Assembly (NCBI GenBank): GCA_964416595.1
Contig: CAYQES010000003.1
Span: 1,419-65,418 of the forward strand
Reading direction: 5' to 3'
Length of the DNA stretch: 64,000 nt
Source of the DNA: an uncultured Bdellovibrionales bacterium
GTDB taxonomy: Bacteria > Bdellovibrionota > UBA1018 > CAIPTA01
The position numbers and the translations under genes are program-made. This document shows positions 5,013 through 50,683 of the stretch, one piece after another. The notes beneath the pieces are model-generated. The model had not been told where the DNA came from, did no database searches, and was given only the letters and a program-made list of their open reading frames with translations. Position 1 is the first letter of the stretch, and each line of letters begins with the position of its first letter.

Positions 5013-5071
5013 AAAAATCTAAGCGCTAGAGTTAACGCGCCGCTTGTCCGGCGCCGGACTTTTCATCGCGA
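5013..5071. repeat. REP-like palindromic element, copy 1 (core GTCCGGCGCCGGAC)
   Basis: aaaaatctaagc...gttaacgcgccgcttgtccggcgccggacttttcatcgcga, starting immediately after a stop codon. A 41-nt core is identical to copy 2. Confidence 0.8.
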
Positions 5072-5165
5072 GATTTGTTCATATAAATTCGATTTGAAAT
5101 AGGCGCCCAGCACAACTCAATGCATCAAAATGCAACCACTCCGTTTCTGATCGTCTGGTGACAAT

Positions 5166-6095
5166 GTGTCCACAGAAAATGACACCACCATCTTCTCAAC
5201 AAAGCTTTCCCGGGCTAATAATGCTCCTATGCAAACGGAAGCACACTTAAACAACATCAATTTACCAAAAATCTTTGAGTACCAATCCCCGCAGGAATAT
5301 CTGGTTCAATATTTCACCTGGATGAAATCCCGTAATAAACGGATGTCGCTGCGATCCTGGGCTAAGATGATGGGCTTGAGGGACCATAGCTTGCTCGTTC
5401 TCCTCTTAAAGGGAAAGCGCCCTGTGCGGCAACAGCATATAGATTTTCTTTTACGCGGATTAACAGTTTCTGAATCTGAAAAACGTCGCTTTAAATTGCT
5501 AGTGCAAGCGGCCAACACTCAGGACGAGGAAGAGCGATTACTATTGTTAAATAGCTCCGCACCCCACGAACAAATTGAGCTGGAGCTCGAAACCTTTCGT
5601 CTTATTTCCCACTGGATTCACCTTGCCATCTTAGAAATGACAGAGCTAAAGGGATTTCGCCCCGAACCAGATTGGATCGCTGCCCACCTGGACCCACCCA
5701 CTTCAAAAACTGAAATCGTTTCCGCCTGGGATCGTTTGGTGCGTTTAGGTTTGGTAAAAGAAGTAAAAGGTAAGTGGAAAAAAACCAATCGCGCCCTTAC
5801 TACTTCCGGTAAAAGTAGCAACCAAGCGGTTCGCGCACATCACCGCCAAATGATCGATTTAGCTAAAAGATCCGTAGACACGCAGTCCATCCAGGAACGC
5901 ATTCTAAATAGCTGTACGATGACTATCGACAGCAAAAAAATCTCGCTGGCCCAAGATATCATTTTGGAATTCCGCAAAAAAATGGAAGCCCTAGTGGAAA
6001 CTCCCGGCGGTGATTCCACTTACCAATTATCGGTGCAGTTTTTTCGTTTATCTAGACATCCTGAAATCAAGAAAAATAAAATGGAGGAAAAATGA
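5166..6095 (+). CDS. TIGR02147-like family protein (Bdellovibrio/Fibrobacter paralogous family, putative HTH)
   Basis: The N-terminal pattern F.Y..P.EYL..YF.......S.R..A...G.....L..LL.GKR matches my recollection of TIGR02147 proteins. Confidence 0.5.
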   Translation: MSTENDTTIFSTKLSRANNAPMQTEAHLNNINLPKIFEYQSPQEYLVQYFTWMKSRNKRMSLRSWAKMMGLRDHSLLVLLLKGKRPVRQQHIDFLLRGLTVSESEKRRFKLLVQAANTQDEEERLLLLNSSAPHEQIELELETFRLISHWIHLAILEMTELKGFRPEPDWIAAHLDPPTSKTEIVSAWDRLVRLGLVKEVKGKWKKTNRALTTSGKSSNQAVRAHHRQMIDLAKRSVDTQSIQERILNSCTMTIDSKKISLAQDIILEFRKKMEALVETPGGDSTYQLSVQFFRLSRHPEIKKNKMEEK

Positions 6096-7336
6096 AGTTC
6101 AATTTTGTCGAGCGTAATGCTCTTAGTATTCTGTTGGCGATTTGTGTTCTCAGTTTAAGTGCTTGTGGAAACAAGCAAGACAATAATCAAGAAAATGGAA
6201 CACAATCCCCCACACCACAACCTACGACGCAGCCAAAAATGGAAGACGGCAGCGGCCCGGGCAATGGCGGAGGAGCCATTGTTCGCAATGGCAACGTGCT
6301 TACGCTGGCGCAAGCTGGAATCGAAATCCCCATCACCGAAGCTCAACCATCGGAAAATCTTGAAGAAGTGAAAGTGGTGGCCGCTCTCATCGAAAAATTG
6401 GCCCTCAGCGATGGCATCCGCGGCAACCTACTTCGATCGCTAGAACCAAATGGCGCGAGGAAATACTTCAAAATCGAAGCTAAAGATTTGAATCCCGAAA
6501 AACGCGCTAAGCTGTTGGCGGCGTATTATTCGGCTATTGGCCAAGTAGTTCCGCCGGAGGACAAACTAACTCTTGTAGCTTTAACCATTGGATCGGAAAC
6601 CTTTCTCTTGCCCGAATTTTACCAGCTGAGCGATGCGACCGCTCGAGCTGCGATTCTATTCCACGAAGCCCTTTGGGTGCGAAATCCTAAAATACGCCTT
6701 AGTTCCGTTTTGCGAGCGGAGATCGCAGTGGAAAAGCTACTTCGCTCGGGGTCAATCAGCAAGAATATCATTTATGACTTTGAACTATTCCAAGTGTTGA
6801 AAGAGGCGCTGGAAGACAAACACCTAGGTATGGTGGGAGCAATCCGCAAAGATTTTGAAAAAGGCTCGATAAAAATTCATCTGCCGAATAACTTAGGCGC
6901 TCCCATTATCAAAACGCTAGAAAAGCCTCATTTTCCTATCCGCTGGCTGCTGGGTGATATTGTAGTGGAAGAATTGAGAACAAGCATGGAACTCAATAGA
7001 GATGCTTTTTACGGTTATATCTATTACTTTTCCAAACTCAATCCCTCGCTCCTCTTTTTGAGAGAGCTGCAACTTTTGATACCAGACATTAAAATAAATT
7101 TTATTTCCTACGATCTCGAGTGGGAAGGCCTAAATAACAACCAATGGTATCAACCAGAAAAGATAGGCGAAGAGTTTTTTGATCTCTCTCAATCGTGGAC
7201 CATGGCCGTGAGAGGACCCAATGAAAATAAATATTGTGACATTACGGGATTCATTGCTCGTGGTGGAACTTTGAACATCAAGGGAAATGTAGCCATGAAC
7301 TTTTCTGTTGATACTACTTTCTGTAGCTATAGGTAA
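6092..7336 (+). CDS. lipoprotein, hypothetical (GNGGG ... FHEALW motifs); paralog-like to 18922..19782
   Basis: Lipobox LSLSAC. The start overlaps the upstream stop. It shares the GxGNGG(G/D) and LxHE(A/Y)LW motifs with the ORF at 18922. Confidence 0.6.
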   Translation: MKFNFVERNALSILLAICVLSLSACGNKQDNNQENGTQSPTPQPTTQPKMEDGSGPGNGGGAIVRNGNVLTLAQAGIEIPITEAQPSENLEEVKVVAALIEKLALSDGIRGNLLRSLEPNGARKYFKIEAKDLNPEKRAKLLAAYYSAIGQVVPPEDKLTLVALTIGSETFLLPEFYQLSDATARAAILFHEALWVRNPKIRLSSVLRAEIAVEKLLRSGSISKNIIYDFELFQVLKEALEDKHLGMVGAIRKDFEKGSIKIHLPNNLGAPIIKTLEKPHFPIRWLLGDIVVEELRTSMELNRDAFYGYIYYFSKLNPSLLFLRELQLLIPDIKINFISYDLEWEGLNNNQWYQPEKIGEEFFDLSQSWTMAVRGPNENKYCDITGFIARGGTLNIKGNVAMNFSVDTTFCSYR

Positions 7337-7365
7337 AATATCACTTTTTCACTGAAGGAGATTTT

Positions 7366-7971
7366 ATGAGCAGAGTAATATTTTCAATTTGGATTGTGCT
7401 AGTTCTAGTTGCTTGCGGACCAGCCCAAACAGGCCTAACGCAGCAGAACGCTTTAATCACAGACAATCTAAGCACCAATAGCAATTGGCTAGAGCATGTA
7501 GGAAAATACGTAGCAGAGGATGCCACTTACCCTGTGGGTAAATACACCAAAACTTTGTCTTTGGATCGAACGGATGTGTTTCATGATAAGTGCGCAAAAT
7601 ATAGCCCTAATTACAAAAGATGCCTCGAGTGGGAAAAAGAGTTTTTCGAAATACAAATGTATGTGGGGTACGTTGTAAAAGAAAACAATTTCATTTCAAA
7701 AAATGCTTCCGCAACAATACTTTTCACTCCAGAGGGTACTTTGAAGCAAATATATGGTGATGAAATTAGCTTTTCTAAATCCGGCGAGCTCCTCATAAAA
7801 AATTTTTGGGGAAATCAATTCAGTAATGGTTCTGATGCGAACATGATCCACCAAGAAGATCGTTTCCGATTCACGGAAGGAAAGATTTTCGGCAAGGAGC
7901 GAATCTTTGATGAGCGGGGTGAAAAGGTGATTTACGAACTCGAAAGCCCTTTTCTGCCTGTGCAAGAATAA
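7366..7971 (+). CDS. lipoprotein, hypothetical
   Basis: Lipobox LVLVAC. RBS GGAG upstream. No recognisable domain. Confidence 0.55.
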   Translation: MSRVIFSIWIVLVLVACGPAQTGLTQQNALITDNLSTNSNWLEHVGKYVAEDATYPVGKYTKTLSLDRTDVFHDKCAKYSPNYKRCLEWEKEFFEIQMYVGYVVKENNFISKNASATILFTPEGTLKQIYGDEISFSKSGELLIKNFWGNQFSNGSDANMIHQEDRFRFTEGKIFGKERIFDERGEKVIYELESPFLPVQE

Positions 7972-7985
7972 GATTTCTATTTTTA

Positions 7986-8020
7986 GGGAGGAATAGCTTG
8001 TAAACTATTCCTCCTTTTTG
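7986..8020 (+). terminator. rho-independent terminator
   Basis: GGAGGAATAG-cttgtaaa-CTATTCCTCC followed by TTTTTG. Confidence 0.65.
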
Positions 8021-8032
8021 CCATCCCTTCAG

Positions 8033-8091
8033 GAAAATCTAAGCAGAAAAGTTAACGCGCCGCTTGTCCGGCGCCGGACTTTTCATCGCGA
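8033..8091. repeat. REP-like palindromic element, copy 2
   Basis: gaaaatctaagc...gttaacgcgccgcttgtccggcgccggacttttcatcgcga, a 41-nt exact match to copy 1. Confidence 0.8.
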
Positions 8092-8247
8092 ATAAAAGAA
8101 TATTTTTCTGATCTACAGAGTGAAAAAGCAGACCATTTCATCGTATTCAACATTCAAGTTTTTCCTGTATAAAAACCACTCTGCCGCCCCGCGCCACGCC
8201 GCCCTCTCCCCTTTCCTTCCGCCCCGCTTTCGCCTATCTTTGTACCC

Positions 8248-9795
8248 ATGTCAAAAACCCAAGAACAGGCCTTCGCCGCCCTTCAGGAAAAACTTGTCGC
8301 CAGTGAGTTTCCCGCAGGGAAAGATCGAGTAGAAAAACAACACCAAGCCGGAAAACTCTCCGCCCGGGAAAGGATTAACCTACTCCTCGATGCCGGCTCC
8401 TTCCAAGAGCTCGATCGCTTTGTCACCCACCGCTGCACAAGCTTCAGCATGGAAAAAAACCAGCCCTTGGGCGATGGCGTGATCACGGGCTTTGGCAAAA
8501 TCGATGGCCGCCTTGTGTATGTTTTCTCCCAGGATTTTACGGTTTTTGGCGGATCCCTCTCGGGCGCCCACGCGGCCAAGATCTGTAAACTCATGGATCT
8601 CGCCGTAAAGAACGGAGCCCCCGTGATTGGCCTGAATGATTCCGGCGGCGCACGCATCCAAGAAGGCGTGGAAGCCCTTGGCGGTTACGCCGAGATTTTT
8701 TGGCGGAACGTGCAGGCGAGCGGCGTGGTGCCCCAGATTTCCGTGGTGATGGGCCCTTGCGCTGGGGGTGCTGTGTATTCCCCCGCCATCACAGATTTTA
8801 TTTATATGGTGGAAAAAACGAGCTTCATGTTCGTGACCGGGCCCGACGTGATCAAAACCGTTACCCACGAAGAGGTTTCTAAAGAAGAACTCGGTGGCGC
8901 CGGCACCCATAGCGAAACAAGTGGCGTGGCGAGCTTCGTGGCTTCCGATGATGCGGGAGCCCTCAGGCAGGTGCGAAAACTTATTTCTTACTTGCCGCTC
9001 CATAATGGTGAAATGCCGCCGGCCAAAGAAAACGCGGAACCCGCCGATCGAGATACCCAAGCCATTCTCTCGATCTTGCCCGATAGTTCACAAAAGCCTT
9101 ACGACATGAAGCGCCTCGTGGAAGATGTGCTGGACGAAAACTCTCTCTACGAAGTGCACGAAAACTACGCCCGGAATATCTTGGTGGGCTTTGGCCGGAT
9201 CGAAGGCCGCACCGTGGGCGTGGTGGCGAACCAACCCATGCACCTTGCGGGCTGCTTGAATATTGATGCTTCTAGAAAAGCAGGAAGGTTCGTGCGCTTC
9301 TGCGACTCTTTCAACATTCCGCTCCTCACCTTCGTGGATGTGCCTGGGTTCCTGCCCGGCACGGACCAAGAATTTAATGGCATCATTGTCCACGGCGCAA
9401 AACTTCTCTATGCCTTTGCCGAAGCCACGGTACCTAAAATCACGGTGATCACCCGGAAAGCCTACGGCGGCGCCTATGATGTGATGGCCTCGAAACACAT
9501 CCGCGCGGATTTTAATTTCTCTTACCCCAATGCGGAAATCGCCGTGATGGGCCCAGAAGGCGCAATCAATATTTTACACCGGGAAAAAGTGGCCAAGGAT
9601 CCAAAGCTAGCGCCAAAATTAGTGGAAGAATACCGGGATACTTTTGCCAATCCTTTCCGGGCCGCAGCCTTAGGGTATATCGACGAAGTGATCCATCCCA
9701 AGGATACGAGGAGAAAAGTAGCCGCCGCCCTCGAAGCTTGTCGCGGAAAACGGGAAGTGCGACCGTTCCGAAAACACGGGAATATTCCGCTGTGA
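8248..9795 (+). CDS. pccB: propionyl-CoA carboxylase beta chain / methylmalonyl-CoA carboxyltransferase
   Basis: Carboxyltransferase 12S-subunit hallmarks, 515 aa: [22 protein letters not shown] and the conserved C-terminal half. Confidence 0.85.
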
Positions 9796-11288
9796 AAAAA
9801 CTCCCCTTCTCCAAAATTCTCGTGGCCAACCGGGGCGAGATTGCCTTGAGAGTAATTCGTGCCGCCCGGGAACTGGGGCTGCAAACCGTGGCCGTTTATT
9901 CCGACGCAGATCGTGATTCTCCCCATGTGCTCTTGGCCGATGAGGCTGTGCACCTCGGCGAAAGCGAAGCCAAGAAAAGTTACCTCGTGCCCGAAAAAAT
10001 CCTCGCCGCCTGCAAAAAAACCGGCGCCACAGCCATTCACCCAGGCTTTGGTTTCCTTTCGGAGAACGCAGATTTCGTGCGCGCTTGCACTAAAGCTGGT
10101 TTAACTTTTATCGGCCCGAGCGCCGAGGCCATGGATCTCATGGGCGATAAACTGAGCGCGAGAGCCGCCATGAAAGCCGCCGGTGTGCCCACGGTTCCCG
10201 GGAGCGAAGGCGCCTTGAAATCTTTGGACGAAGCCAAAAAGCTCGCCAAAGAAATTGGCTTTCCCGTGATCTTGAAAGCCGCCGCCGGTGGCGGTGGCAA
10301 AGGCATGCGGTTGGCCCAGAACGCGGCGGAATTAGAAAATTTCTACGAGAGCGTAAAGCGGGAAGCGCAAAATTATTTTAACGATGATGCGGTTTTTCTC
10401 GAACGCTTTGCCAAAAATCCCCACCATATCGAAGTGCAAATCCTCGCCGATTCCCACGGCAATGTTTGCCATCTTTTTGAACGGGAATGCTCCGTGCAGC
10501 GCCGGCACCAAAAAGTGATTGAGGAAGCGCCTTCACCTTTTCTTCATGGGTATGATGACGTTCGCCAAAAGCTTTTTGCCGTGGCCGTAGAAGGCGCCAA
10601 GCGCATTAAATACGTGAACGCGGGCACCATGGAATTCGTGATGGATGGCGACCGCAATTTCTATTTCCTAGAAATGAACACTCGTATCCAAGTGGAACAT
10701 CCCGTAACGGAGATGATCACGGGCATCGATATCGTAAAAGAGCAAATCCTGATCGCGGCTGGTCTCCCGCTTTCTTTTCGCCAAGAAGATCTTACCGCCC
10801 GGGGAGCTGCCATCGAATGCCGCCTCTACGCGGAAAACCCCTTCACCTTTTTGCCCTCCCCCGGCCCCGTAAAAGAACTGGTACTTCCTGGTGGCCCTTT
10901 CGTGCGCGTGGATAGCGCCATGCAAAGTGGGCAAGTAATTCCCTTAGAGTACGACCCCATGATCGCGAAACTTTCCGCCTGGGGGAGAACGAGAGAGGAA
11001 AGTCTCCACCGCATGCACCGGGCCTTAGCGGAAACGGGAGTGGCGGGCTGCCTTACGAACCTAGGATTTCTACGGCGCTGTATGGAAAATCCTATTTTCC
11101 AAAAAGGCGATTACACCACGGGCTTTATTAAAGAGCAGGAAAAGGTGCTCGCCAATCCCGCAAGCCTGCCTCCCGGCATTCAGACGGAAGAAGAGTTTCA
11201 GGCATTGTTAGCGCTGCTCGCCCGTACCGAAACCCCCAACGCAGTAAAAAGCGAAAGCGCCGCTTGGTGGAGAACACATGTCCGATAA
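9792..11288 (+). CDS. biotin carboxylase subunit (acetyl/propionyl-CoA carboxylase alpha, BC domain only)
   Basis: ATP-grasp biotin carboxylase motifs ([32 protein letters not shown]). The GTG start overlaps the pccB stop (GTGA). Confidence 0.85.
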
Positions 11289-14249: not shown

Positions 14250-14275
14250 TTCCTTAAAGCCCCCCAAACCCCCTG

Positions 14276-14311: not shown

Positions 14312-14607
14312 ATTTTATGCACAATAAGCAAAGGCAAAAAAGTCCGGCGCCGGACAAGCGGTGCAGCATTCGTAGACGTCTCACGCTCGTAAATGTAAGC
14401 ACATATGAATATCTTCGATTTTTTGTCCATAGACCCGGAAGAGATCCGGCACGCGCCCGAGCTCCCGAAAACCTGTGGTCTGATTTCCGTAAATTCCACG
14501 GGCGTAAAAATAAAATCCCCATCCCTGCCGGATTCTTTAAACAAGCGCAATTCGTGTTGCTGGTAGAGAGGAAGATCGGCCGCTTCGGCTAAACGAATCT
14601 TCAGCAC
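14296..14607 (-). pseudogene. remnant of a GNAT acetyltransferase paralog (N-terminal ~34 aa conserved, then degenerate)
   Basis: MLKIRLAEAADLPLYQQHELRLFKESGRDGDFIF aligns with MHIRPLQAADLMMLARHELRHSRENGRDGDFIF of the intact GNAT at 49018..49551. Similarity is lost downstream and the REP copy lies inside the ORF. Confidence 0.4.
14337..14364. repeat. REP-like element, copy 3 (centre plus right arm)
   Basis: aaaagtccggcgccggacaagcggtgc. Confidence 0.7.
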
Positions 14608-14612: not shown

Positions 14613-15563
14613 CTACTTCTTATACAGCCCAATTTCCCGCAGGCGCTGATTCAAATACTCGCCGGCGGTGATATTGGGGTAACGCTTTTCATTCAAGCGC
14701 TGAATAGAACGCGGCAATGGGCTTAGATCCACTTCGGATCGAGGATGCACAAAAAACGGCATGGAGAAACGGCGCTCCCGGGAATTGCCGGGATTTACCA
14801 CGCGATGGGTGGTGCTTTTGAGCAAGCCGTTCGTGAGGTTTTGCAACATATCGCCCGTGTCCACGATGATCTGGCCTTTTAAAGCGTGGATCGGCAGCCA
14901 TGTGCCATCCCGGCGGAGGAGCTCGAGTCCGCCAGCGGTGGCTTCGCACAATAAGGTGATAAAATTAATGTCTTCATGGGCACCGGCGCGGATGCTTTGG
15001 GGATCACGATCGGCGGGAACTTCTGGATAGTTGATGATCCGTAGGATCGTGTTGCCGTCTTTTGCCATGCTCGGTAAGAGATCTTTCGATTCACCGATAT
15101 AGAGAGAACAGGCTTCCAAGAGTTGCATGGAGCAAACGTCCAACTGGCGATAGAGCTCCAGCATCACTTCTTTAAATTCCGGAATTTCCTTCGGCCAAAC
15201 GTTGGGTGGGTAGACTTCCAAAAGTGGATTACCAGGATTCAACTCCCGGCCCACATGCCAGAATTCTTTTAGGTCTGGTGCTTTATGATCCTTCGCGTGT
15301 TCCCGGCCAAAGCTCGTAAAACCCCGCTGGCCTTTTAGTTCTAAATCTTCGTAGGAACGTTTATTGGATTCGGGAAGGTCAAAAAAAGCAGCAGCTAATT
15401 GATAGGCCTTTTCGATGAGCCGGTAATCTACGCCATGGTTTTGGAGAGCGAAGAAACCCATATCCTTCAGGGCATCTCCCATGCGGCCCACAAAGGCCTC
15501 CTTTTGGCCCTGGGAGCCACGTAAGTACTCCTGCAGGTCTACTACTGGGATTGTTTGATTCAT
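14613..15563 (-). CDS. 2-oxoglutarate/Fe(II)-dependent oxygenase (isopenicillin N synthase-like)
   Basis: HxD...H triad (AHEDINF, TTHRVVNP) plus RFSMPFF arginine. Start taken at the internal Met (MNQTIPVVDLQEY); the ORF track extends 11 codons to a GTG. Confidence 0.7.
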   Translation of the reverse strand: MNQTIPVVDLQEYLRGSQGQKEAFVGRMGDALKDMGFFALQNHGVDYRLIEKAYQLAAAFFDLPESNKRSYEDLELKGQRGFTSFGREHAKDHKAPDLKEFWHVGRELNPGNPLLEVYPPNVWPKEIPEFKEVMLELYRQLDVCSMQLLEACSLYIGESKDLLPSMAKDGNTILRIINYPEVPADRDPQSIRAGAHEDINFITLLCEATAGGLELLRRDGTWLPIHALKGQIIVDTGDMLQNLTNGLLKSTTHRVVNPGNSRERRFSMPFFVHPRSEVDLSPLPRSIQRLNEKRYPNITAGEYLNQRLREIGLYKK

Positions 15564-18048: not shown

Positions 18049-18076
18049 AAAAAGTCCGGCGCCGGACAAGCGGTGC
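18049..18076. repeat. REP-like element, copy 4
   Basis: aaaaagtccggcgccggacaagcggtgc, immediately after the NUDIX stop. Confidence 0.7.
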
Positions 18077-18165
18077 TTCATATGTTTTCCACTGCTACCA
18101 ACTGGAAAACACTTTGTTTTCCTTTTCCTTGCGGATTTTTGTTTCTGTAGCTATAGCTAGGCCCC

Positions 18166-19804: not shown

Positions 19805-19817
19805 AAAAGTCCGGCGG
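19805..19817. repeat. partial REP-like half-site
   Basis: aaaagtccggcgg only. Confidence 0.3.
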
Positions 19818-19889
19818 AGTGTGTTTGGAAATTGTGCGTTACGGGGCCCCCTCCCGAAGAGAAGGCCCACGCATTCCCGCGAATAAATT

Positions 19890-36138: not shown

Positions 36139-36513
36139 GAGACCCCCCATTAATATACCTAGGTTAACGCAAGATCGAGGCCACCCTCCCAAGCAGCAAA
36201 AACATTTATCAATGAACTCCCAAGGGACAATACGTCTCATAAATTGCGCAGTAGGAGCCATAACAACCCCTCTTCGTTCAAATAGCTATAATTGGGCTAA
36301 GGATCTGATGGCACTCTCATTGCAATTTCTTTTGGTGAAATTACCTACGGGCAGGTGGTCGCTAATGATGAGAACAAGCATTAATTTTACAATAAGAATC
36401 GCCACACTTGTTTCTGCCCTACTGGTGCTTCCTTTAGTCGTAAATGTGGCGGCCACCATGCTGCTATGGGCATTAAACTGACAATGGTTAAACAGAACAA
36501 TATAAGGAGCAAT

Positions 36514-36702
36514 ATGAAACAGAATATAAAACCTTGGGATAGAGGCGTTCGAATGATTCTAGGTGTTATGGCCCTTGCACTTGTGTTCCTGGGGCCCCAA
36601 ACCGCTTGGGGTTATCTTGGATTGATTGCTATCGTTTCGGCTTTATCCGGATTTTGTCCTTTGTACCGAATCCTAGGAATTAGAAATTGTCGCATAGACT
36701 AG
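36514..36702 (+). CDS. DUF2892-like small membrane protein (YgaP-like)
   Basis: ~60 aa with two TM segments and a conserved GFCPLY motif. RBS AGGAG. Confidence 0.5.
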   Translation: MKQNIKPWDRGVRMILGVMALALVFLGPQTAWGYLGLIAIVSALSGFCPLYRILGIRNCRID

Positions 36703-36760
36703 ATAGCTATATTTATGAAAAAAATTGCCATCGTATATTGGACTAAGCAATCTTTTGAGC

Positions 36761-42053: not shown

Positions 42054-43172
42054 ATGGCTTTTCGCAGTTTTTTATCTCTATTTTTAGCTTCCCTCTTCAT
42101 CTTGGCGCCGGTTTCGTTCGCCAAAGATAAGGTTGGCTGTGCTCATTACGCCAAACTCAACAAACAGCTACAGCCGAATTTTTCCCGTAAAGGCAATTTA
42201 TGGACGAAAACCTTCAAGTGGGAGCTACGGAGAAATTTCGCTACCTTTCGGGAAGATCCAAAAGATGTGCTCCGCATGGGCCTCGTGGCTGTGTCAAAAG
42301 ACGAAGTGGAATTGATTGCCTTTAGCGAAGTGGATCCACGGATCATGAATCTCTTTGTAGACGGCGACAAATACTATTGGATGCTACATCCGAATAATAA
42401 ATCGGATGAGGTTCCTTACTTTGGCAGCGAGACCGTGGGTTATCTACCCGCCGGCTATACAGCCTCTCGTTCTGTAGTCTCGTTGAGCGAAGAGTCTCCA
42501 GCTTTTTCCATCAAGGCAGGCACGAGCTACCCCCACCTCTCCGATCATCAGCCCACCAAAGCCTCCACTGTAGACGACGTAACCGGCGCTTTGTTACGCC
42601 AGCCCTATATTAACCAGGTGGAACGCATTCTCCCGGAGGATAAGAAACTCATGCTCATCCAGGAACTCATGATCCTGAAGCATAAGGAAACTGGGCAGGG
42701 TGTTTTGATTCGCGATCTAAGCCGCATAGACAACAAAAATATCTATCTCACTGGCCTCAGTATACCCTACGCCGGCCGCGCGATTGCCCGCATAAATCGC
42801 GTGCCGCGAGATTCTTTTTGGACCAAGATATACGCGGCCAATACGGGGCGCGCAAAAGCGCGGCTACTCATTCATTATGGGCTCGAGATGGAAACTCCCA
42901 ATAGCCAAAACGTGATCGTGGAGTTTACGTCGAAATATAAACCCACCAACCGTATCGTGCTTCGTGACACCGTGGATTCTCTCGCCTACGAGCCCTGGTT
43001 CCGAGCACTCGGCATGAATCGCACACTCAAAAAAAATAAGGCCGCAGATTTCAGCCGCGGTCATTTGGAACCTTTTGCCACCAACTCCATCTGGCGCTTC
43101 GATGAGGCTGGTAAAGATAGTTTCTCCGCACAGGCAATGGAGCAAATGGAGAAAGCACACGACCAAGCCTGA
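42054..43172 (+). CDS. secreted hypothetical protein
   Basis: Signal peptide MAFRSFLSLFLASLFILAPVSFA. Confidence 0.55.
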   Translation: MAFRSFLSLFLASLFILAPVSFAKDKVGCAHYAKLNKQLQPNFSRKGNLWTKTFKWELRRNFATFREDPKDVLRMGLVAVSKDEVELIAFSEVDPRIMNLFVDGDKYYWMLHPNNKSDEVPYFGSETVGYLPAGYTASRSVVSLSEESPAFSIKAGTSYPHLSDHQPTKASTVDDVTGALLRQPYINQVERILPEDKKLMLIQELMILKHKETGQGVLIRDLSRIDNKNIYLTGLSIPYAGRAIARINRVPRDSFWTKIYAANTGRAKARLLIHYGLEMETPNSQNVIVEFTSKYKPTNRIVLRDTVDSLAYEPWFRALGMNRTLKKNKAADFSRGHLEPFATNSIWRFDEAGKDSFSAQAMEQMEKAHDQA

Positions 43173-43190
43173 CTAGACGAGATTAAGAGT

Positions 43191-43424
43191 ATGCTCAAGA
43201 ACGTGCCCGACAACGTGAACAGCATTTCCGAGATGGACAATTTTCTGAAATCTCCCGAAGGCCAGAAAGCCTTGCGCAATTACCACGAAGGCCTCAACAC
43301 CTTACCCAAGCTCCAAAAGATCGACGAAATGAGCCTTCGGCACAAGGTGCGCGACTGGGCAGAAAAGTGGGTTCGGGGAACAGAAGAGGTTCTGATTCCC
43401 GTGGGTGGATTTGCCTGGGCTTGA
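43191..43424 (+). CDS. small hypothetical protein
   Basis: 77 aa, 18 nt downstream of the previous gene. Confidence 0.35.
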   Translation: MLKNVPDNVNSISEMDNFLKSPEGQKALRNYHEGLNTLPKLQKIDEMSLRHKVRDWAEKWVRGTEEVLIPVGGFAWA

Positions 43425-43468
43425 GGCCGTTTCATTCAGTTGAGTTCAGTGAGGGCCCCCGAGGAGAA

Positions 43469-44449
43469 CTAGAAACTCACCGAGTATGTAACCTTAGCCG
43501 TATCCCGGCTTTTCTCTCCCAAATTGCTACGCTTCGAGCCGCCCCAACGCTCAGAGTTCAAATCTAAAGAAACTTGCTCCGTGATTTTTTTATTCACATT
43601 AAGCACTAAGAGAGATTCATCCACTCCGTAACGCACCTTAGATTTCATCTCTAATTTCTTGAATTCACGGTTGAGCTCCACGGCGAGATTTTCACCCGAA
43701 CCGGCTCTGGCTTCCACGGAAGTAGTCACGATGGGATTAGAAAAGGTCAATTGGCCTTGAGTCTTCAGCACATTCAGCTTGGCTCGCAAACGAGTAGGAA
43801 TCACTTCTTCTTCCTCTTTTGTAAGGGAGGAGAAATCCGCGCGGTGAGCCCGGGCGATGCGCTCTTCTTCGGTCAATCGCGCTTCCGCTTTGCTATCTTT
43901 AGGATCGTCTTGCATACCGGTTGTAGCGGCTACCACACCTAAGGCGGCAGAATCTTTTTTCCGACGTTGCACAAAATCTTTTAATTGGGCCCGGCCCACT
44001 TCTTTGAGAGTCCAGCTGGCCAATTCCTTACGGCTCTCTTCGTAGCGCTGCCGCTCCCAAGTGTTAGAACGGCGATAAGGGTTCAAAACTTCTTTTTCGA
44101 TGGGGCTTACGGTGCCGTAGTAACGTTCCCGCATGCGCGCGCTCATGTCTTCGTCAAAAATTTTCTGGTTGAGGGTTTTGTTCGTAGCCATCACTTGATC
44201 GATATTTTCCCAGCGGGGATCTTCTTTTTTCGCCACAGGACGGAAGCGAGCCCAGCGATTGCTCAGTTTCGCGAGCAAGCCGGGCGTGGATGGGGAAGGC
44301 TTGGCAGGTTTTACGGCCACGGGCGTAACAGCTGGTTTCTCCAGCGCTGGTGGTTGAGAAATGCTGCCCACGGCGGTTTGGCCATCCGCTAAAACGGCTA
44401 TAACGCTGCAGAAAATCAGTACTAGAGAGATGGTCTTCTTTAATGACAT
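43469..44449 (-). CDS. secreted charged (K/E/R-rich) hypothetical protein
   Basis: Signal peptide, low-complexity charged central region. Confidence 0.55.
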   Translation of the reverse strand: MSLKKTISLVLIFCSVIAVLADGQTAVGSISQPPALEKPAVTPVAVKPAKPSPSTPGLLAKLSNRWARFRPVAKKEDPRWENIDQVMATNKTLNQKIFDEDMSARMRERYYGTVSPIEKEVLNPYRRSNTWERQRYEESRKELASWTLKEVGRAQLKDFVQRRKKDSAALGVVAATTGMQDDPKDSKAEARLTEEERIARAHRADFSSLTKEEEEVIPTRLRAKLNVLKTQGQLTFSNPIVTTSVEARAGSGENLAVELNREFKKLEMKSKVRYGVDESLLVLNVNKKITEQVSLDLNSERWGGSKRSNLGEKSRDTAKVTYSVSF

Positions 44450-44622
44450 AAGTCCTCAAAGTATTTAGTGCAAAACCAGTACCAGTACCCGATTAGACCA
44501 TTTTTACTGTATAATATCCAACACTTAACCATGTATCCTGGAAGTTACGCCTAAGCCCTAAACAACCCATACTGTTGAATTTTTATACAGTGCACAGGAA
44601 TCCAACGTCCTTCCCCGCCCCC

Positions 44623-45318
44623 TTAACCCATAGGTAGCTGAGCACACCAAAAAGCCAAGGCCATGAGCGCCCCACTCACCACTGGAATGGAGAAATTGTC
44701 GTCCACGTTTAGGGGCAAAAGCTCTGCGATACTGCCCGATAGCCCCCCCAGCAGGGATAACAACAGGATCTTTTCTCGATCGAAATCCTGCCAAACGAGA
44801 TAAATAGCTGTTACTACAGCACAAATCACAAACCCCCCCAGGGTGCCCTGGAGGCTCTTATTGGGAAAGATTTTGCTGCGTCCGTAGAGCACCCCAAAAA
44901 AGGAGGAAGAGGGGTCACCAAACGCCAAGTAGAGAATCGAAAGCACCGCGATATGCCGGGGAAAAATCAAAAACGCGAACAGGCAAGAAGCCATATAAAA
45001 CGGAATGCCCGTAAGCTGATTCACCTCTGTGTCACGCATAATCGGGCCCATCACCTTCACCGCCAAGCCATTCACCCACTCCCAGCGGGCCCGGCAATAC
45101 TCCAGGCTCATCACCAGAGCTAAAAAAGTGCCTAAGATAGCGGCCATATATTCCTGAGAAAAGTTTAGAAAAAGAAAGGGCACAAGAAACACTAGGCCGC
45201 CACTCATATGAAAAGTTTTTCGAGCCAGGTGCAGATCGCTTCGTTGAGCCAGGGGTTTTCTTCCCTGTGTCAGACGCAAAGAGAGCGCCCAATTTTTCCA
45301 CTCTTGCCAACGTTTCAT
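44623..45318 (-). CDS. integral membrane protein, CTP_transf_1-like (dolichol/phytol kinase - CDP-diglyceride synthase superfamily)
   Basis: 6-7 TM segments, LARKTFHMSGG motif. Confidence 0.45.
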   Translation of the reverse strand: MKRWQEWKNWALSLRLTQGRKPLAQRSDLHLARKTFHMSGGLVFLVPFLFLNFSQEYMAAILGTFLALVMSLEYCRARWEWVNGLAVKVMGPIMRDTEVNQLTGIPFYMASCLFAFLIFPRHIAVLSILYLAFGDPSSSFFGVLYGRSKIFPNKSLQGTLGGFVICAVVTAIYLVWQDFDREKILLLSLLGGLSGSIAELLPLNVDDNFSIPVVSGALMALAFWCAQLPMG

Positions 45319-45446
45319 GGTTTAATGCTCTCATGGAGAAGTGGGAATCGCATCCAAAACTGGTCCAGCTTTTTTACCTTCTTCCGAGTTGACTTTAAGC
45401 GTCAGTCTTCTGATACTAGAAAGGGAGAGGGGCTTTTTACAAATTC

Positions 45447-46457
45447 ATGGATAGCCTTGTGGAAAAAGAAGTGCTTGCGGAAGCGATGGAAGTGGTAAGC
45501 ACTCCCACCACTACCGGTTCCGGATCTTCTTATAAACAAATTTGGGCGATTGGTGGCGGTAAAGGCGGAGTGGGAAAAACTCTGATCACCGCCAACTATG
45601 CTATCACCTTGGCCAAAGCGGGCGCTTCGGTGGTACTAGTGGATTTGGATTTGGGTGGCGCCAACTTGCACACTTGCTTAGGCGTGGAAGTGGGAGAAAA
45701 AACTCTTACGGATCTTTTTTCTCCCGACATAAAAAATCTTAACGATCTCTGCATTCCCACTAATATCCCTAATCTCTCTCTCATCAGCGGCGCGCAAGAT
45801 AGCTTGAACGTGGCGAACCTGCCCCACGCCCAGAAGCAAAAATTACTGAACAAACTGAAACAGCTGCCCGCGGATTATATTATTTTGGATCTCGGTGCCG
45901 GCACGTCTTACAACACTTTGGATTTTTTCTTGGCGGCAGACGTGGGCATCCTCGTGGTGCTGCCTGAGCCTACTAGCATCGAAAACGCCTACCGCTTCAT
46001 CAAAAGCGCTTTCTACCGGAAATTAAAAAATATCGAATACCTCTACGACGCCCGCTCCTTTGTGGACGCCACCATGAACCGTAAAAATGAACTCGGCATC
46101 CGCACCCCTGCAGATTTACTCCGCTCCCTAGAAGAGCAATTCCCCGAGGTGGGATCCAAGGTGCGCAGCGCCATCAACCGTTTCGATATTAAACTCGTGG
46201 TGAACCAAGGCCGTACGGCCACTGACACGGAAATCGGCTACGGAGTGCGCAATGTGTGCAAAAAGTACTTTGGCTTCAACTTAGATTACCTGGGTTGCCT
46301 GGAATACGATTCCGCCGTTTGGCAGAGCGTGCGCAGGAAACGCCCCCTAGCCATCGAGTTCCCTTCAAGCCCCCTCGTGCCCGCGATCCAAAGGATGGTG
46401 GGCCATATCGTGGCCGAACAAGCGGAAAAATTGAAACGCCAAGAAGTGGAATTGTGA
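45447..46457 (+). CDS. ParA/MinD-family P-loop ATPase
   Basis: Deviant Walker A GGGKGGVGKT. Confidence 0.8.
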   Translation: MDSLVEKEVLAEAMEVVSTPTTTGSGSSYKQIWAIGGGKGGVGKTLITANYAITLAKAGASVVLVDLDLGGANLHTCLGVEVGEKTLTDLFSPDIKNLNDLCIPTNIPNLSLISGAQDSLNVANLPHAQKQKLLNKLKQLPADYIILDLGAGTSYNTLDFFLAADVGILVVLPEPTSIENAYRFIKSAFYRKLKNIEYLYDARSFVDATMNRKNELGIRTPADLLRSLEEQFPEVGSKVRSAINRFDIKLVVNQGRTATDTEIGYGVRNVCKKYFGFNLDYLGCLEYDSAVWQSVRRKRPLAIEFPSSPLVPAIQRMVGHIVAEQAEKLKRQEVEL

Positions 46458-46484
46458 TCGGCCCTATTCACTAGAACAACTCCC

Positions 46485-47276
46485 GTGCTAGGATTATTTT
46501 ATCCTATGGGAAAGAACGGCAAGCAAAGTTACTACGAAATTCTCGACGTTAGCCTCAACGCCAATCCGGAAATCATTCGCACTTCTTATATCCGCGCTAA
46601 AAACGCCTACAACCGGGATTCCTTGGCGGCTTACTCCCTCTTTGATCGGGAAGAATCAAAACGCATTTTAGAAGAAATCGAGGAAGCCTACGCCATTCTC
46701 TCCGATTCCGAGAAGCGCCGAAAATACGACGAATCCCACGGCATCCTTTCCTCTGAATCTGTGTACGACGCCTACCACAGGGGCAATCACGCAGTGGCCG
46801 CCTTTACCCGCGATAGCTTGCCCCAAGAAGGCGAAGATCGTTTTAGCTTTGAGGATGATCCCTTCCGCAAAGCCGCTGGAGAAGCCAAGCCCGCACCAGT
46901 TTCGGCAAAACCCTCTCCTCTTGAGCGCTTGAAGGCGTTGGATAACTCTCCCGCTCCCGCCAAAGCCTACCATGTGGTGCACACCTTCGAAAAAGACGAC
47001 GCCATGGAAGAGCGGATCCAGAAATGCGAAGGCGTGAATGGTGCATTTTTGAAAGCCGTGCGGGAATACAAAAAGATTTCCCAGGATGAAATCATGAACA
47101 TCCTAAAAATCAGCCGCAATTATTTAACGGCCCTTGAGGAAGACAATTTCTCCAAACTCCCCGCCAATGTGTTCGTGCGCGGATTCGTGATCCAATACGC
47201 GAAAGCCGTGCGCGTGGACCACGAAAAAGTGGCTAACGCCTACATGGACTATCTGCGCGCCAACCGGCCAAGTTAG
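46485..47276 (+). CDS. J-domain-like N-terminus + RodZ-like HTH C-terminus protein
   Basis: YYEILDVSLNANPEIIRTSYIRAKNAY is J-domain-like but lacks HPD. The C-terminal HTH (ISQDEIMNILKISRNYLTALEEDNF) resembles HTH_25/RodZ. Confidence 0.5.
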   Translation: MLGLFYPMGKNGKQSYYEILDVSLNANPEIIRTSYIRAKNAYNRDSLAAYSLFDREESKRILEEIEEAYAILSDSEKRRKYDESHGILSSESVYDAYHRGNHAVAAFTRDSLPQEGEDRFSFEDDPFRKAAGEAKPAPVSAKPSPLERLKALDNSPAPAKAYHVVHTFEKDDAMEERIQKCEGVNGAFLKAVREYKKISQDEIMNILKISRNYLTALEEDNFSKLPANVFVRGFVIQYAKAVRVDHEKVANAYMDYLRANRPS

Positions 47277-47278
47277 CC

Positions 47279-48289
47279 ATGGCCGTGTTGCAGGCCGGGC
47301 AATGGATTTCGATCACAGCTGAGGTAGCAGGAGAGCGCTTGGATGTTGCGCTCGCTCGACTCTTCCCTGAACTTTCTCGTTCGCGCGCGCAAAAATTAAT
47401 TTTGGAAGGTTTCGTACGCTGCAATGGCGCGGGTGCAAAGGCGAATTTGAAATTAGCAGTTGGTGATACGCTAGAAGTTTTTTTGCCCTTGGCGCGGGCG
47501 GTAGGAGTAGAGGCCCAGAATATTCCGTTAGAGATTCTCTACCAAGACGAGCATTTAGCCGTGGTGGAAAAACCTCCGGGCCTCGTGGTGCATCCAGCGG
47601 CGGGGCACGAAGACGGAACTTTAGTGAATGCGCTGTTGCACCACTTTCCCGATCTTTCCACGGGCTCCGGCATCGGCGGGGAACTTCGGCCCGGCATCGT
47701 TCATCGCATCGATAAAAATACTTCCGGGATTTTACTGATCACAAAAACCGATTTGGCCCATGCACATCTTTCGCAGCAGTTTAAAGAGCATTCAATTTCT
47801 CGGCGTTATTTGGGATTGTGTTGGGGCTCGCTGCCTTCCCGGGGCGAGTGGAACGAAGCTATCGCTCGGGATCCAAAGGAGCGCAAACGCATGGCGCCCT
47901 CGGAAAAAGGCCGCACGGCACTCACGCGTTTTCGGTGTGTTTCTGGTTTTCCAGGAGTTTCGCTCTTTGAAGCGGAATTATTCACGGGCCGCACCCACCA
48001 GATCCGGGTGCACTTTTCTTTTCATGGATTTCCTTTGGTGGGGGATTCTGTGTATGGAGGCGCTTGCCGGGCCGCAAGGAAATCCAGGGAAGAAGGCGGG
48101 CGAGTGCTGGCGAAACGGTGTGTTGAGGGTTCGCGATTGGTGGAAAAGTTGGAAGAAGCTGGCCGGCAATTTTTGCACGCGGCTCATTTAGGTTTTGTTC
48201 ATCCTGTTTCGCAGAAGCGGATGGAATTTAATAGCGAGCTGCCGGAGGATTTAAGGGAAATCATGCTAGCATTGGAGCCATGCAAATGA
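47279..48289 (+). CDS. rluD: RluA-family 23S rRNA pseudouridine synthase (RluD-like)
   Basis: S4 domain plus catalytic HRIDKNTSGILLITK motif. Confidence 0.8.
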   Translation: MAVLQAGQWISITAEVAGERLDVALARLFPELSRSRAQKLILEGFVRCNGAGAKANLKLAVGDTLEVFLPLARAVGVEAQNIPLEILYQDEHLAVVEKPPGLVVHPAAGHEDGTLVNALLHHFPDLSTGSGIGGELRPGIVHRIDKNTSGILLITKTDLAHAHLSQQFKEHSISRRYLGLCWGSLPSRGEWNEAIARDPKERKRMAPSEKGRTALTRFRCVSGFPGVSLFEAELFTGRTHQIRVHFSFHGFPLVGDSVYGGACRAARKSREEGGRVLAKRCVEGSRLVEKLEEAGRQFLHAAHLGFVHPVSQKRMEFNSELPEDLREIMLALEPCK

Positions 48290-48954
48290 TTCGCTCTCCT
48301 CTTTTATCCTCTTTGGCCGGTGTGGAACACGGATTTTTGCCAGAGCCAGACCCTGTTATTAAGTCTCAAGTGAGCACCGTGAAGCAAGTACACGGAGATT
48401 TATTGCTGTGGAGTGATCGTTTGGAAAAAGGAGAACGGGAAGCAGACGGAATTGCAACACGAAAGGCTGGCTTGAAAGTGGGCGTTTATTCCGCGGACTG
48501 TGCGCCGATTCTTGTGGCCGCATTGAGTGAGGGCGGCGCAGTGGTTTCTGTGATGGCCGTGCATGGGGGCTGGCGAGGCACTGCGATGGAAATCGGCGCA
48601 AAAAGCTTTACGCGTTTTGCGGAAGAACTTGGCTCTAAGGCCGCGCGCTTTGTGGCCGCGATTGGTCCGTGCATTAGTTTTGAAAGTTTTGAAGTGGGCG
48701 AAGAAGTGGTGACCGCTTTTCCTGGATCATTGGATCGGGGCCTCGCGCGATTTTTACGCATGGAAGAGAATAAGAAAAAATTTCTCTTCGATTTGCCTGG
48801 GGAGAATCGGCGGCAGTTATTGGCGGCGGCGGAACGCTTGGGAGTAAAGTTAGAAGTAGAAGCTTTGGGGATTTGCACATTGCGGGAAGCGCTCCCCTCC
48901 TATCGGCGGGATGGGAAGAAGGCGGGAAGAATTTTATCATATATTGGATTTTAG
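48280..48954 (+). CDS. pgeF: YfiH/PgeF-family (DUF152, laccase-domain) peptidoglycan editing factor / purine nucleoside phosphorylase
   Basis: Conserved ADCAPIL...HGGWRG motifs. Confidence 0.7.
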   Translation: MQMIRSPLLSSLAGVEHGFLPEPDPVIKSQVSTVKQVHGDLLLWSDRLEKGEREADGIATRKAGLKVGVYSADCAPILVAALSEGGAVVSVMAVHGGWRGTAMEIGAKSFTRFAEELGSKAARFVAAIGPCISFESFEVGEEVVTAFPGSLDRGLARFLRMEENKKKFLFDLPGENRRQLLAAAERLGVKLEVEALGICTLREALPSYRRDGKKAGRILSYIGF

Positions 48955-48995
48955 TAACGCACCGCTTGTCCGGCGCGGACAGGCGATGCGTTAAG
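48955..48995. repeat. REP-like element, copy 6 (near-complete 2x18 palindrome)
   Basis: taacgcaccgcttgtccggcgcggacaggcgatgcgttaa, immediately after the pgeF stop. Confidence 0.75.
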
Positions 48996-49017
48996 TCCAA
49001 TTGGCATGGGCAAAGTT

Positions 49018-49551
49018 CTAGCGCAGTTTCAACACCATCTCGCTATCATCGATCGATTGTCCAAACACCCGGAACAAATCCCGGCTCGTGCCCACCAACT
49101 GAAAGCCAAATTTTTTATACAGCGCCTTGGCGGGAATATTGTTTTCAAATACGCACAAACTAACCCAATCAAGAGAAGGTTGCGCCCGGGCCCAGCCTAA
49201 CGCTTCTTCCATGAGTTTCGACCCCCAACCCCGCCCTCGCACGGAACGCTCCATGCCCATGGCTAATAAGCAACGGTGCAAGGAAGTTTGAAGAGGTGGG
49301 TGATGTATTAGGGTGATTTCGCCAAAAACCTCCTTTTCGTCGGTCAAGATCCAGAACCTTCGCCAACCGATTTCGGTGACTGGCTTTAAAAGGGACTCCA
49401 TCTGTTTCGGAAAATCTTCTTCTTTAATCGCACGCTCCTCCTCTTGGAGAGCAAAAATAAAATCCCCATCCCGACCATTCTCCCGGGAATGGCGAAGCTC
49501 GTGACGGGCCAACATCATGAGATCAGCAGCTTGTAAGGGGCGGATGTGCAT
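49018..49551 (-). CDS. GNAT-family N-acetyltransferase
   Basis: Motif A RGRGWGSKLMEEAL, 177 aa. Confidence 0.8.
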   Translation of the reverse strand: MHIRPLQAADLMMLARHELRHSRENGRDGDFIFALQEEERAIKEEDFPKQMESLLKPVTEIGWRRFWILTDEKEVFGEITLIHHPPLQTSLHRCLLAMGMERSVRGRGWGSKLMEEALGWARAQPSLDWVSLCVFENNIPAKALYKKFGFQLVGTSRDLFRVFGQSIDDSEMVLKLR

Positions 49552-49606
49552 AGAAAACTCTTATCTTTGGTCTAGAGAGAAGTCATAGGTATAATAATAA
49601 TGACTC

Positions 49607-50640
49607 TTGGATTCACAGAGCCAGTGCAACTCGCTTACCGTTAAAGACCTCAAAAGGGGTAAGGTAGTCAAGAACCTTTCGAGGGCGATGATTTAGCCAG
49701 TTCTCTAAAGCAGGCAGATTTATGGTTTCAAGGTCGGTATCGGATTTAATAAATCGCCTAATAACGCCAATCGTATTCTCAATGGTTCCTCTTTGATAAG
49801 GAGAGCCCGGATCGCAAAAGTATATTTCGCAGCCAATGTTTTCTCGCGATCTAAACTCTGAACCGCAGTCGTTCGTAATACTCAATTTAGGCTTAGCATC
49901 TAGTAACCTTTTCGTAGCCTCTTGGGTTTCTGCCGAGTTTGGCGCACACAACTTGGAGAGAACGGTGAATCTTGATTTGCGATCAGTACAAGCTAGAAGT
50001 GGCTCACGCCTTTTTGCATACATTAGATCCCGCTCCCAATGTCCAATTTCGCTTCTATTGTTACTGCCCTCGGGTCGAGACTTGATGTTTTTCCACCATT
50101 TGGGCCTAGGGCCGTTGTGGGTATTATAGATCCTCGGATATCGACGGCCTTTATAGAGAAGATATTGCTTAAAAACAGAGTGTCGCTTGATGAAGCGATA
50201 AATTGTCATTGCCGATAAATCTTCGTGTTTTTCGAGAGCTATCCTGCCTGCAATGAGCTCCGGGCTCCAGCCCCTTTTAAGCCATTGGCAAACGACTTCT
50301 TTATAGCGCTCCTCAACTTTTAATTTTCTTCGGCAGTTTTGTCGAAAACGTTTTCTGGCCAGGCAATGGGCAGGATCGCTTTGATAAACTGGTTCTGAGT
50401 AGCAGCTTTTTTTAACTGAATTTCGCTTAAGTTCCCGATAAATAGTAGATTTATGTCGATTGAGCGATTTTGCAATATGTAAAACGGCCATTTTTTCTTG
50501 CAAAAGAACGAAAATCTGGCACCTTTCGGCGTAGGTCACCCTTGAGTACTTCACGGTACAACTCCTTAAAATTGGTTTTTGGCGAAATTGTTTTTAGGAC
50601 AAGGGTGTCCTTTTTTCAATTTCTAGGAGTTGCACTGGCT
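49607..50640. mobile_element. IS30-family insertion sequence (~1.03 kb) with terminal inverted repeats AGCCAGTGCAACTC
   Basis: Left end ...acagAGCCAGTGCAACTC (about 49609-49622); right end GAGTTGCACTGGCTacgt (about 50625-50638). A single transposase ORF lies inside. Confidence 0.7.
49613..50554 (-). CDS. IS30-family DDE transposase
   Basis: N-terminal HTH plus C-terminal DDE region (GHWERDLM ... conserved IS30 core). GTG start. Confidence 0.85.
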   Translation of the reverse strand: MKYSRVTYAERCQIFVLLQEKMAVLHIAKSLNRHKSTIYRELKRNSVKKSCYSEPVYQSDPAHCLARKRFRQNCRRKLKVEERYKEVVCQWLKRGWSPELIAGRIALEKHEDLSAMTIYRFIKRHSVFKQYLLYKGRRYPRIYNTHNGPRPKWWKNIKSRPEGSNNRSEIGHWERDLMYAKRREPLLACTDRKSRFTVLSKLCAPNSAETQEATKRLLDAKPKLSITNDCGSEFRSRENIGCEIYFCDPGSPYQRGTIENTIGVIRRFIKSDTDLETINLPALENWLNHRPRKVLDYLTPFEVFNGKRVALAL

Positions 50641-50654
50641 ACGTAAATTCAAGA

Positions 50655-50683
50655 CTTCGGCGCCGGACAAGCGGCGCGTTAAA
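50655..50683. repeat. REP-like element, copy 7
   Basis: cttcggcgccggacaagcggcgcgttaa, about 17 nt outside the IS30 right inverted repeat. Confidence 0.7.

Follow-up and report, generated by a model that had tools for sequence, protein, structure and literature searches.

A family of short intergenic repeats is present in seven copies in a 64-kb stretch of contig CAYQES010000003.1, from the genome of an uncultured Bdellovibrionales bacterium. This whole stretch, the only part of the host genome analyzed, is here called the window, and all statements on copies, density and placement refer to it. The copies are best read as lineage-specific, non-autonomous short dispersed repeats of the kind represented by repetitive extragenic palindromic sequences (REPs) and MITEs (miniature transposable elements with inverted repeats), an interpretation to which we give a probability of roughly 55%. 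It is favored because near-identical copies lie beside unrelated or distantly paralogous genes, lie strictly between genes and in both orientations, are restricted to one lineage and, in one case, have been hit by an insertion sequence (IS). The original prediction, which proposed a REP-like family from the sequence and was largely right in its description, missed the most informative feature of these repeats: every copy lies in DNA without counterpart in relatives, often at its edge.

The seven predicted copies, which amount to a local density of 1 per 9 kb, were all recovered where they had first been placed (Table 1) by word counts, repeat finding, a profile search and a gapped pattern. The 14-nt palindrome GTCCGGCGCCGGAC has four exact matches (at 5046, 8066, 14342 and 18054), where 0.13 are expected, and one further match with two mismatches at 50655, and the 15-mer CCGCTTGTCCGGCGC is found exactly at six loci of the window. 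Repeat finding returned a direct repeat of 61 nt (5011-5071 versus 8031-8091, 92% identical), which includes the 41-nt identical core described earlier for copies 1 and 2, and a 33-nt pair (14337-14369 and 18049-18081, 94% identical); inverted matches of 25-35 nt tie these copies to 48955-48979 and 50651-50685. An nhmmer profile made from the aligned copies detected seven arms at six loci, with E values from 7e-7 to 8e-3, and no other match in the window. Copy 5 is missed by this profile and its membership rests on the gapped-pattern test, in which the pattern matched copies 1, 2 and 5 only and had zero occurrences in shuffled sequences. Once taken for a half copy, it is actually a full copy with both ends kept and the middle replaced, 11 nt having been swapped for 16-17 unrelated nt between conserved ends that can also be written AAAAGTCCGGCG ... 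GTGCGTTAC. The core is 96-100% identical among copies that stand beside unrelated genes, and the copies lie, as predicted, in either orientation; their gene contexts are mixed (tandem, convergent and divergent).

In one orientation, the shared unit of about 32 nt reads (T)TAACGC-GCRCCGCTTGTCCGGCGCCGGAC-TTTT(T) and holds the 14-nt palindrome together with an overlapping hairpin (6 bp, 6-nt loop). The two hairpins that can be drawn, GCGCCG-CTTGTC-CGGCGC and GTCCG-GCGC-CGGAC, overlap and are mutually exclusive. Copies 1, 2 and 7 contain TTAACGCGCCG, copies 3 and 4 have GCACCG instead, and TAAC adjoins the hairpin at five loci and is missing from copies 3 and 4. The palindrome is perfect in four copies and broken in copies 5, 6 and 7. 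Copy 6, announced as a near-perfect palindrome of 2x18 nt, is indeed one, with 16/18 positions paired and with pairing that can be extended to 48943-49001, and forms a strongly significant hairpin (RNA, -33.8 kcal/mol, z -5.9; DNA, z -5.7; range of z against shuffles, -5.7 to -6.1), whereas single copies do not outfold shuffled sequence (z -0.2 to -2.4). Since only copy 6 far outfolds its shuffles, the term palindromic element is apt for this doublet and only weakly so for the single copies. Neither strand of the unit contains GTAG, GTGG or CGTC. Across the whole window, Rfam returned no family at gathering thresholds, and around copy 6 it gave one meaningless match (E=0.73).

Table 1. Repeat copies, segments specific to the window, and the GNAT and IS features discussed in the text (window coordinates)
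Feature	Coordinates	Strand	Description	Counterpart in relatives	Repeat copies
Copy 1	5011-5076	+	unit TTAACGCGCCGCTTGTCCGGCGCCGGACTTTT at 5032-5063; palindrome at 5046-5059		
Copy 2	8031-8091	+	direct repeat of copy 1; unit at 8052-8083		
Copy 3	14337-14369	-	GCACCG subfamily, no TAAC; minus strand reads X-palindrome-TTTTTT		
Copy 4	18049-18081	-	94% identical to copy 3 over 33 nt		
Copy 5	19805-19842	-	rearranged copy; ends AAAAGTCCGGCGG and GTGCGTTAC kept		
Copy 6	48943-49001	none	head-to-head doublet, two units sharing the central palindrome; core 48955-48995		
Copy 7	50654-50686	-	plus-strand sequence ACTTCGGCGCCGGACAAGCGGCGCGTTAAATCC; GNAT and VKOR-DsbA genes start on either side, divergently		
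Segment	5017 to ~8200		TIGR02147/DUF4423 regulator-like gene and two putative lipoproteins		copy 1 at left edge, copy 2 ~110 nt inside right edge
Segment	13362-14606		244-aa gene and GNAT pseudogene	absent	copy 3
Segment	16458-36776		20 kb	absent	copies 4 and 5, within the first 3.4 kb
Segment	41664-43460		372-aa gene	absent from L127, the sole relative covering it	no copy
Segment	48955 to ~50769		GNAT gene and IS		copy 6 at left edge, copy 7 84 nt inside right edge
Segment	52829-54697		633-aa gene	absent	no copy
GNAT pseudogene	14387-14604	-	paralogue of the intact GNAT, of which residues 1-33 and 141-177 remain; internal deletion and frameshift		
GNAT acetyltransferase gene, intact	49018-49551	-			bracketed by copies 6 and 7
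IS30-family insertion sequence	49606-50653	-	1048 bp; transposase gene at 49613-50554		

Sixty-five open reading frames (ORFs) were taken as genes, which makes 93% of the window coding and 7% non-coding. All seven copies are nevertheless intergenic (p ~7e-9), as had been claimed, and none was found inside coding sequence. In three of them (copies 1, 4 and 6) the repeat follows a TAG stop codon at a distance of 0-1 nt, which agrees with the number first reported; the shared identity of these stops was considered as a signal and rejected, because TAG ends a third of the genes in the window. Copy 1 begins at the stop (5010-5012) of a 135-aa gene and is the only copy with outer inverted arms, AAATCT (5015-5020) and AGATTT (5071-5076). 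Copy 4 starts 0 nt after the stop of a NUDIX gene and 84 nt upstream of a TIGR02147/DUF4423 gene, and copy 6 begins 0 nt past the stop of PgeF/YfiH and ends 22 nt from the stop of a GNAT gene. A truncation of PgeF by the element was likewise rejected, the C-terminus being intact in comparison with four homologues.

One rival explanation is a function in RNA, whereby the unit would mainly be a 3'-end module (a weak intrinsic terminator or an mRNA-stabilizing hairpin) that travels with the 3' flank of accessory genes and is copied locally. A terminator scan flags five copies, in which GTCCG-GCGC-CGGAC, with its 5-bp stem, is followed by T4-T6, and 4-5 of the seven are co-oriented with a gene. 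The T-run lies on the terminator-type strand relative to the flanking upstream gene in copies 1, 2, 3 and 5, copy 6 is located between convergent genes, and both GNAT paralogues have an element past their stop. In addition, one relative (contig L121) has, at the position of copy 3, where its mutase and dioxygenase genes converge, a 12-bp hairpin formed by a related central motif, CCGGCGCCGG. However, termination, one of the roles named in the original prediction, fails as a uniform function because copy 4 is anti-oriented, with its T-run on the wrong strand for terminating the NUDIX transcript, the genes on either side of copy 7 start divergently, copy 6 lacks a T-run, and copies 2 and 3 are found directly behind much stronger, unrelated terminator-like hairpins (the one before copy 2 was read from the sequence at ~7986-8022, and the one before copy 3 is listed by the terminator scan). 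Moreover, the stem has only 5 bp, the folding energy of single copies is the same as that of shuffled sequences, and conservation extends well past the needs of a terminator, including the TTAACGC arm. We consider an RNA-level module rather unlikely, and less likely than the recombination-site explanation weighed below.

The perfect 14-bp palindrome in four copies could also point to an operator or an architectural site for a dimeric DNA-binding protein, for instance a nucleoid protein or the neighboring TIGR02147 winged-helix proteins. There are just two TIGR02147/DUF4423 genes in the window, and a copy precedes each of them, 84-100 nt upstream of the start given by the ORF call; the chance of both placements is, by a rough estimate, about (7/60)^2 = 0.014. 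The other five copies, on the contrary, have no TIGR02147 neighbor, and the orthologous operons found on two other contigs (L124 and L125) lack the motif. With an asymmetric stretch of identity of 27-41 nt and a palindrome broken in three copies, the pattern is one of shared descent and not of a degenerate binding motif. A binding site is thus the least probable of the explanations considered, far behind the recombination-site model.

The comparison with relatives draws on syntenic contigs of three of them for the carboxylase region (L120, L121/L122 and L250) and of two for the PgeF region (L126 and L127/L128), together with the homologues of the TIGR02147 operon on L124 and L125. At the nucleotide level L120 is 72-77% identical to the window, and the remaining relatives were compared at the protein level only. 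The carboxyltransferase of the window is 100% identical to a protein encoded on a 166-kb NCBI contig; its next best homologues are 84-89% identical and belong to uncultured Bacteriovoracia and Bdellovibrionota. Two Logan contigs of SRR15237806 correspond to the window itself, one being 100% identical by BLAST (L119) and the other having the same gene order, unaligned (L123); neither reaches beyond the window, and they show no variation against it.

Within the reach of these relatives and of the metagenome data, the repeat family appears to be specific to the host lineage. The nhmmer profile gave no match at E<=1 in 118 kb from relatives. A scan of JGI metagenomes gave no match to a 23-mer and one to a 21-mer, which is taken as chance because it lies inside an ORF of a contig with 63% GC and no other similarity. 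Viral sequences in IMG/VR contained no match to a 20-mer and only chance single matches to a 15-mer, and a scan of a genome collection with an 18-mer yielded, among the matches listed, single chance matches in high-GC genomes only. At the position of copy 3, the L121 relative carries a perfect hairpin, TTTCACCTCCGGCGCCGGAGGTGAAA (15026-15057, also at 7659-7672 of L122), between the convergent methylmalonyl-CoA mutase and dioxygenase genes, and its 10-nt center CCGGCGCCGG is also the center of the element. This match could be due to chance in a genome of 61% GC, or could hint at an origin of the family from an ordinary terminator.

Translated comparison with the relatives delimits six segments that are specific to the window, and all seven copies fall within them, often at their edges (Table 1); no copy occupies an intergenic region that is conserved in the relatives. 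The genes of these segments mostly have a lower GC content at third codon positions (GC3, 0.35-0.49) than the syntenic genes (mostly 0.53-0.66), with the exception of the GNAT gene (0.57). Direct copies bracket two of the segments, namely the TIGR02147 operon (copies 1 and 2) and the GNAT gene (copies 6 and 7). In place of the former, three relatives have an unrelated gene of 489/505 aa, no remnant of which was found in the window between the 135-aa gene and the carboxyltransferase gene; homology resumes ~110 nt after copy 2, upstream of the latter gene. In place of the GNAT segment, both relatives covering it lack the GNAT gene and have the PgeF and VKOR-DsbA genes 38-43 nt apart. As for the 20-kb segment, the TerC and glycosyl hydrolase genes that surround it are adjacent in L120 and L121, and no TerC is called between the dioxygenase and the hydrolase in L250. 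Inside it, copies 4 and 5, in direct orientation, flank the second TIGR02147/DUF4423 gene and a 286-aa ORF; the two DUF4423 proteins of the window are 27% identical.

This arrangement is the basis of the main rival explanation, in which the elements are att-like recombination sites for the insertion of gene modules. Recombination between a resident copy and the one carried by a circular module would leave direct repeats on both sides of the inserted module, in an integron-like logic with dispersed sites. Accordingly arranged are the two segments that start exactly at an element 0-1 nt past the stop of a conserved gene and end with a second direct copy (the TIGR02147 operon, enclosed by copies 1 and 2, and the GNAT gene, enclosed by the right arm of copy 6 and by copy 7), and copies 4 and 5 likewise flank the second TIGR02147 module. 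Both GNAT paralogues, moreover, are still followed by an element, 10-22 nt from the stop codon, despite ~50% protein identity. Uniform sites beside varied small accessory genes (GNAT, NUDIX, lipoproteins) recall the cassettes of chromosomal integrons. On the other hand, Pfam detects no tyrosine or serine recombinase among the large ORFs of the window, the right-hand copies lie 84-110 nt inside the boundary and not at it, and neither two of the window-specific insertions (42054-43172 and 52829-54730) nor the outer edges of the 20-kb and 1.2-kb segments have a copy. The polarity of the element relative to the cargo is inconsistent, the homologous TIGR02147 operons of other genomes have no such flanks, and 2-3 directly oriented pairs do not reach statistical significance. 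Although it is the strongest competitor, the att-like model is in our view unlikely. Its more elaborate version, a dispersed, non-integron gene-capture system in which accessory modules (GNAT, NUDIX, TIGR02147 operons) carrying one copy would be inserted beside core-gene stops by a putative recombinase encoded elsewhere, is doubtful to a greater degree, below even the RNA-level module.

Several observations concern the content of the window-specific DNA and its surroundings. The 20-kb block, located between TerC and a GH3 glycosidase, consists of genes that look like ordinary chromosomal ones and encodes two-component systems, a sigma-54 activator, a transglutaminase-elicitor-like protein, a beta-CASP RNase and CBS proteins, and no integrase or other mobility gene. 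At its right edge there is an unusually long gap of 499 nt (36262-36760) with no repeat copy and with apparent small uncalled ORFs, e.g., one with an ATG near 36515 that would encode a hydrophobic peptide. The three-gene module at 5166-7971 recurs on L124 (1772-4385) and L125 (3216-5780), with a different neighborhood each time. It consists of a TIGR02147/DUF4423 winged-helix protein, a ~400-aa protein and a 163-201-aa protein, the latter two without family match, and its middle gene is 40-68% identical in these two Bdellovibrionota-like contigs. The module looks like a portable operon for a regulator plus secreted proteins. The possibility that the element is part of this module was rejected, as the homologous operons in L124 and L125 lack it. 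The genes at 42054-43172 (372 aa) and 52829-54730 (633 aa) have neither a Pfam match nor repeat flanks, and both are lacking at the syntenic position, the first in L127 and the second in L126 and L127. Conversely, a 408/435-aa gene found beside an MFS transporter gene in the relatives is missing from the window. Finally, a 324-aa ORF at 65-1039 has a sub-threshold match to an HNH endonuclease (E 6e-4, 20.3 bits versus a cut-off of 21.4).

The two GNAT genes illustrate how much better the elements are conserved than the proteins beside them. The remaining segments of the pseudogene, which occupies the region between copy 3 and the dioxygenase gene, are 58% and 46% identical to the intact GNAT, the paralogues having diverged far more than their adjacent elements. 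A copy had been said to overlap a degraded GNAT gene; the degraded gene is real, but there is no overlap, copy 3 being located 10-17 nt beyond its end.

The IS of the window, the only one present, belongs to the IS30 family and encodes a 313-aa DDE transposase with HTH_38 and rve domains. Its terminal inverted repeats match at 24/28 positions, and its ends (TCTTGGATTCACAG...) are unrelated to the repeat unit. One end had been placed 17 nt from a repeat copy, whereas copy 7 in fact directly abuts the IS. The triplet ACT on either side (49603-49605 and 50654-50656) is an apparent 3-bp target duplication, a match of three bases that could also be chance. Removal of the IS restores ...TTAACGCGCCGCTTGTCCGGCGCCGAAGT joined to CATTATT..., that is, a continuous copy 7 that extended into 49595-49605 before the insertion, and therefore the IS entered at the A/T-run edge of this copy. 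The predicted use of the repeat as an IS target is thereby upheld. IS insertion into REPs has been documented for five IS families, IS30 not among them (PMC1525189), and IS30 is known to favor nearly palindromic hot spots (PMC9333248). The Logan contig with the GNAT gene, L123, stops ~230 nt inside the IS30-like element (contig positions 1-288, window ~49552-49839) and, since assembly graphs break at repeats, this suggests that the IS is multi-copy in the SRR15237806 sample.

As a dispersed repeat of the REP/MITE kind, the unit would spread, or stay uniform, within the lineage through a trans-acting enzyme or through recombination between copies, and would persist in young, unconstrained intergenic DNA. 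In the genome it would mainly act as a hotspot of insertion and recombination at the junctions of acquired DNA, and co-oriented copies may add, as a side effect, a weak hairpin-plus-T-run terminator or an RNA 3'-end stabilizer. Several points weigh against this interpretation. The copies are known from 64 kb of the host only. The window holds no candidate mobilizing enzyme: there is no gene for a Y1 or REP-associated tyrosine transposase (RAYT), and the ends of the IS30-like element are unrelated. No recurrent target-site duplication was found around the copies, nor a terminal inverted repeat consistent across them. The closest copies are neighbors (1 and 2, 3 and 4), a situation that local duplication or gene conversion could explain. 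Lastly, the association with acquired DNA is drawn from small numbers and distant relatives, a copy being present in 5/8 intergenic regions associated with breakpoints versus 0/4 conserved ones (Fisher p ~0.08, own count).

The repeat resembles the small palindromic repeats known from many bacteria and is, in this sense, a fresh example of an ordinary kind of element. No description of small dispersed repeats in Bdellovibrionota was found in the literature searched, which makes the family a potential lineage marker and a potential target for strain typing. Its copies flag positions of DNA gain relative to the relatives. Should the association with acquired-gene junctions extend to the whole genome, the family would provide a compact case of short palindromes channeling both gene gain and IS insertion in a lineage of predatory bacteria.

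Among the known systems that can be compared with this family, the paired DNA uptake sequences of Neisseria (DUS) and the uptake signal sequences of Haemophilus (USS) that work as terminators share with it a repeated sequence forming a hairpin downstream of genes. The unit of the window, however, is much longer and less frequent (~1 per 9 kb versus ~1 per kb), is never found inside genes, and has two copies that are not in the position of a terminator.

The attC sites of integrons, including those in clusters of attC sites lacking an integrase (CALIN), are also uniform imperfect palindromes, located right after the stops of small accessory genes such as GNAT and NUDIX, and direct repeats here flank single genes or small operons in a similar way. 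Known attC sites measure ~57-141 nt. The core in the window, in contrast, has ~41-45 nt and is nearly perfectly paired, with no bulged bases; the AAC...GTT pair is present in copy 6 only, where one of the two boxes fits RYYYAAC/GTTRRRY, and the single copies have no R'. Furthermore, the modules of the window lie dispersed between core genes and can include a regulator of their own. An identity with attC was rejected on account of boxes, length and bulges, with neither integrase nor array in the window.

The MITEs and other small mobile sequences (Correia/NEMIS, ERIC, RUP) are likewise non-coding, dispersed and intergenic, with inverted symmetry. They tend to adjoin genes that vary between strains, and signals for promoters or terminators can be part of them. 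The copies of the window, of 32-66 nt, are shorter than typical members, and they have no consistent terminal inverted repeats or target duplication, the marks by which MITEs are recognized, and no parent IS with the same ends.

The last comparison is that with REPs, with the bacterial interspersed mosaic elements (BIMEs) that contain them, and with REPINs, in which two REPs are joined. REPs are GC-rich imperfect palindromes of 20-40 nt that can fold into a stem-loop. Most described REP families are marked by a GT(A/G)G head or a CGTC tag at the end of the palindrome (PMC2817692, PMC3733652). The family of the window lacks any GTAG, GTGG or CGTC tag beside its hairpin, which in single copies has only 5-6 bp. 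REPs usually exceed 100 copies per genome, and seven are found here in 64 kb. The two REPs of a REPIN are separated by a spacer, whereas the doublet of copy 6 shares one central palindrome. The gene for the cognate Y1/RAYT protein, usually flanked by REPs and proposed as a search target in the original prediction, was not detected by Pfam among all the large ORFs of the window. Membership in the REPs proper is not supported, and there is no demonstrable REP/RAYT system. What stands of the proposed REP/BIME identity is the likeness to a dispersed family of this type: like REPs, BIMEs and REPINs, the repeats of the window are short, GC-rich, partly palindromic and strictly extragenic, lie in either orientation and sometimes as inverted doublets, as in copy 6, are specific to a species or lineage, and are used as insertion sites by IS elements.

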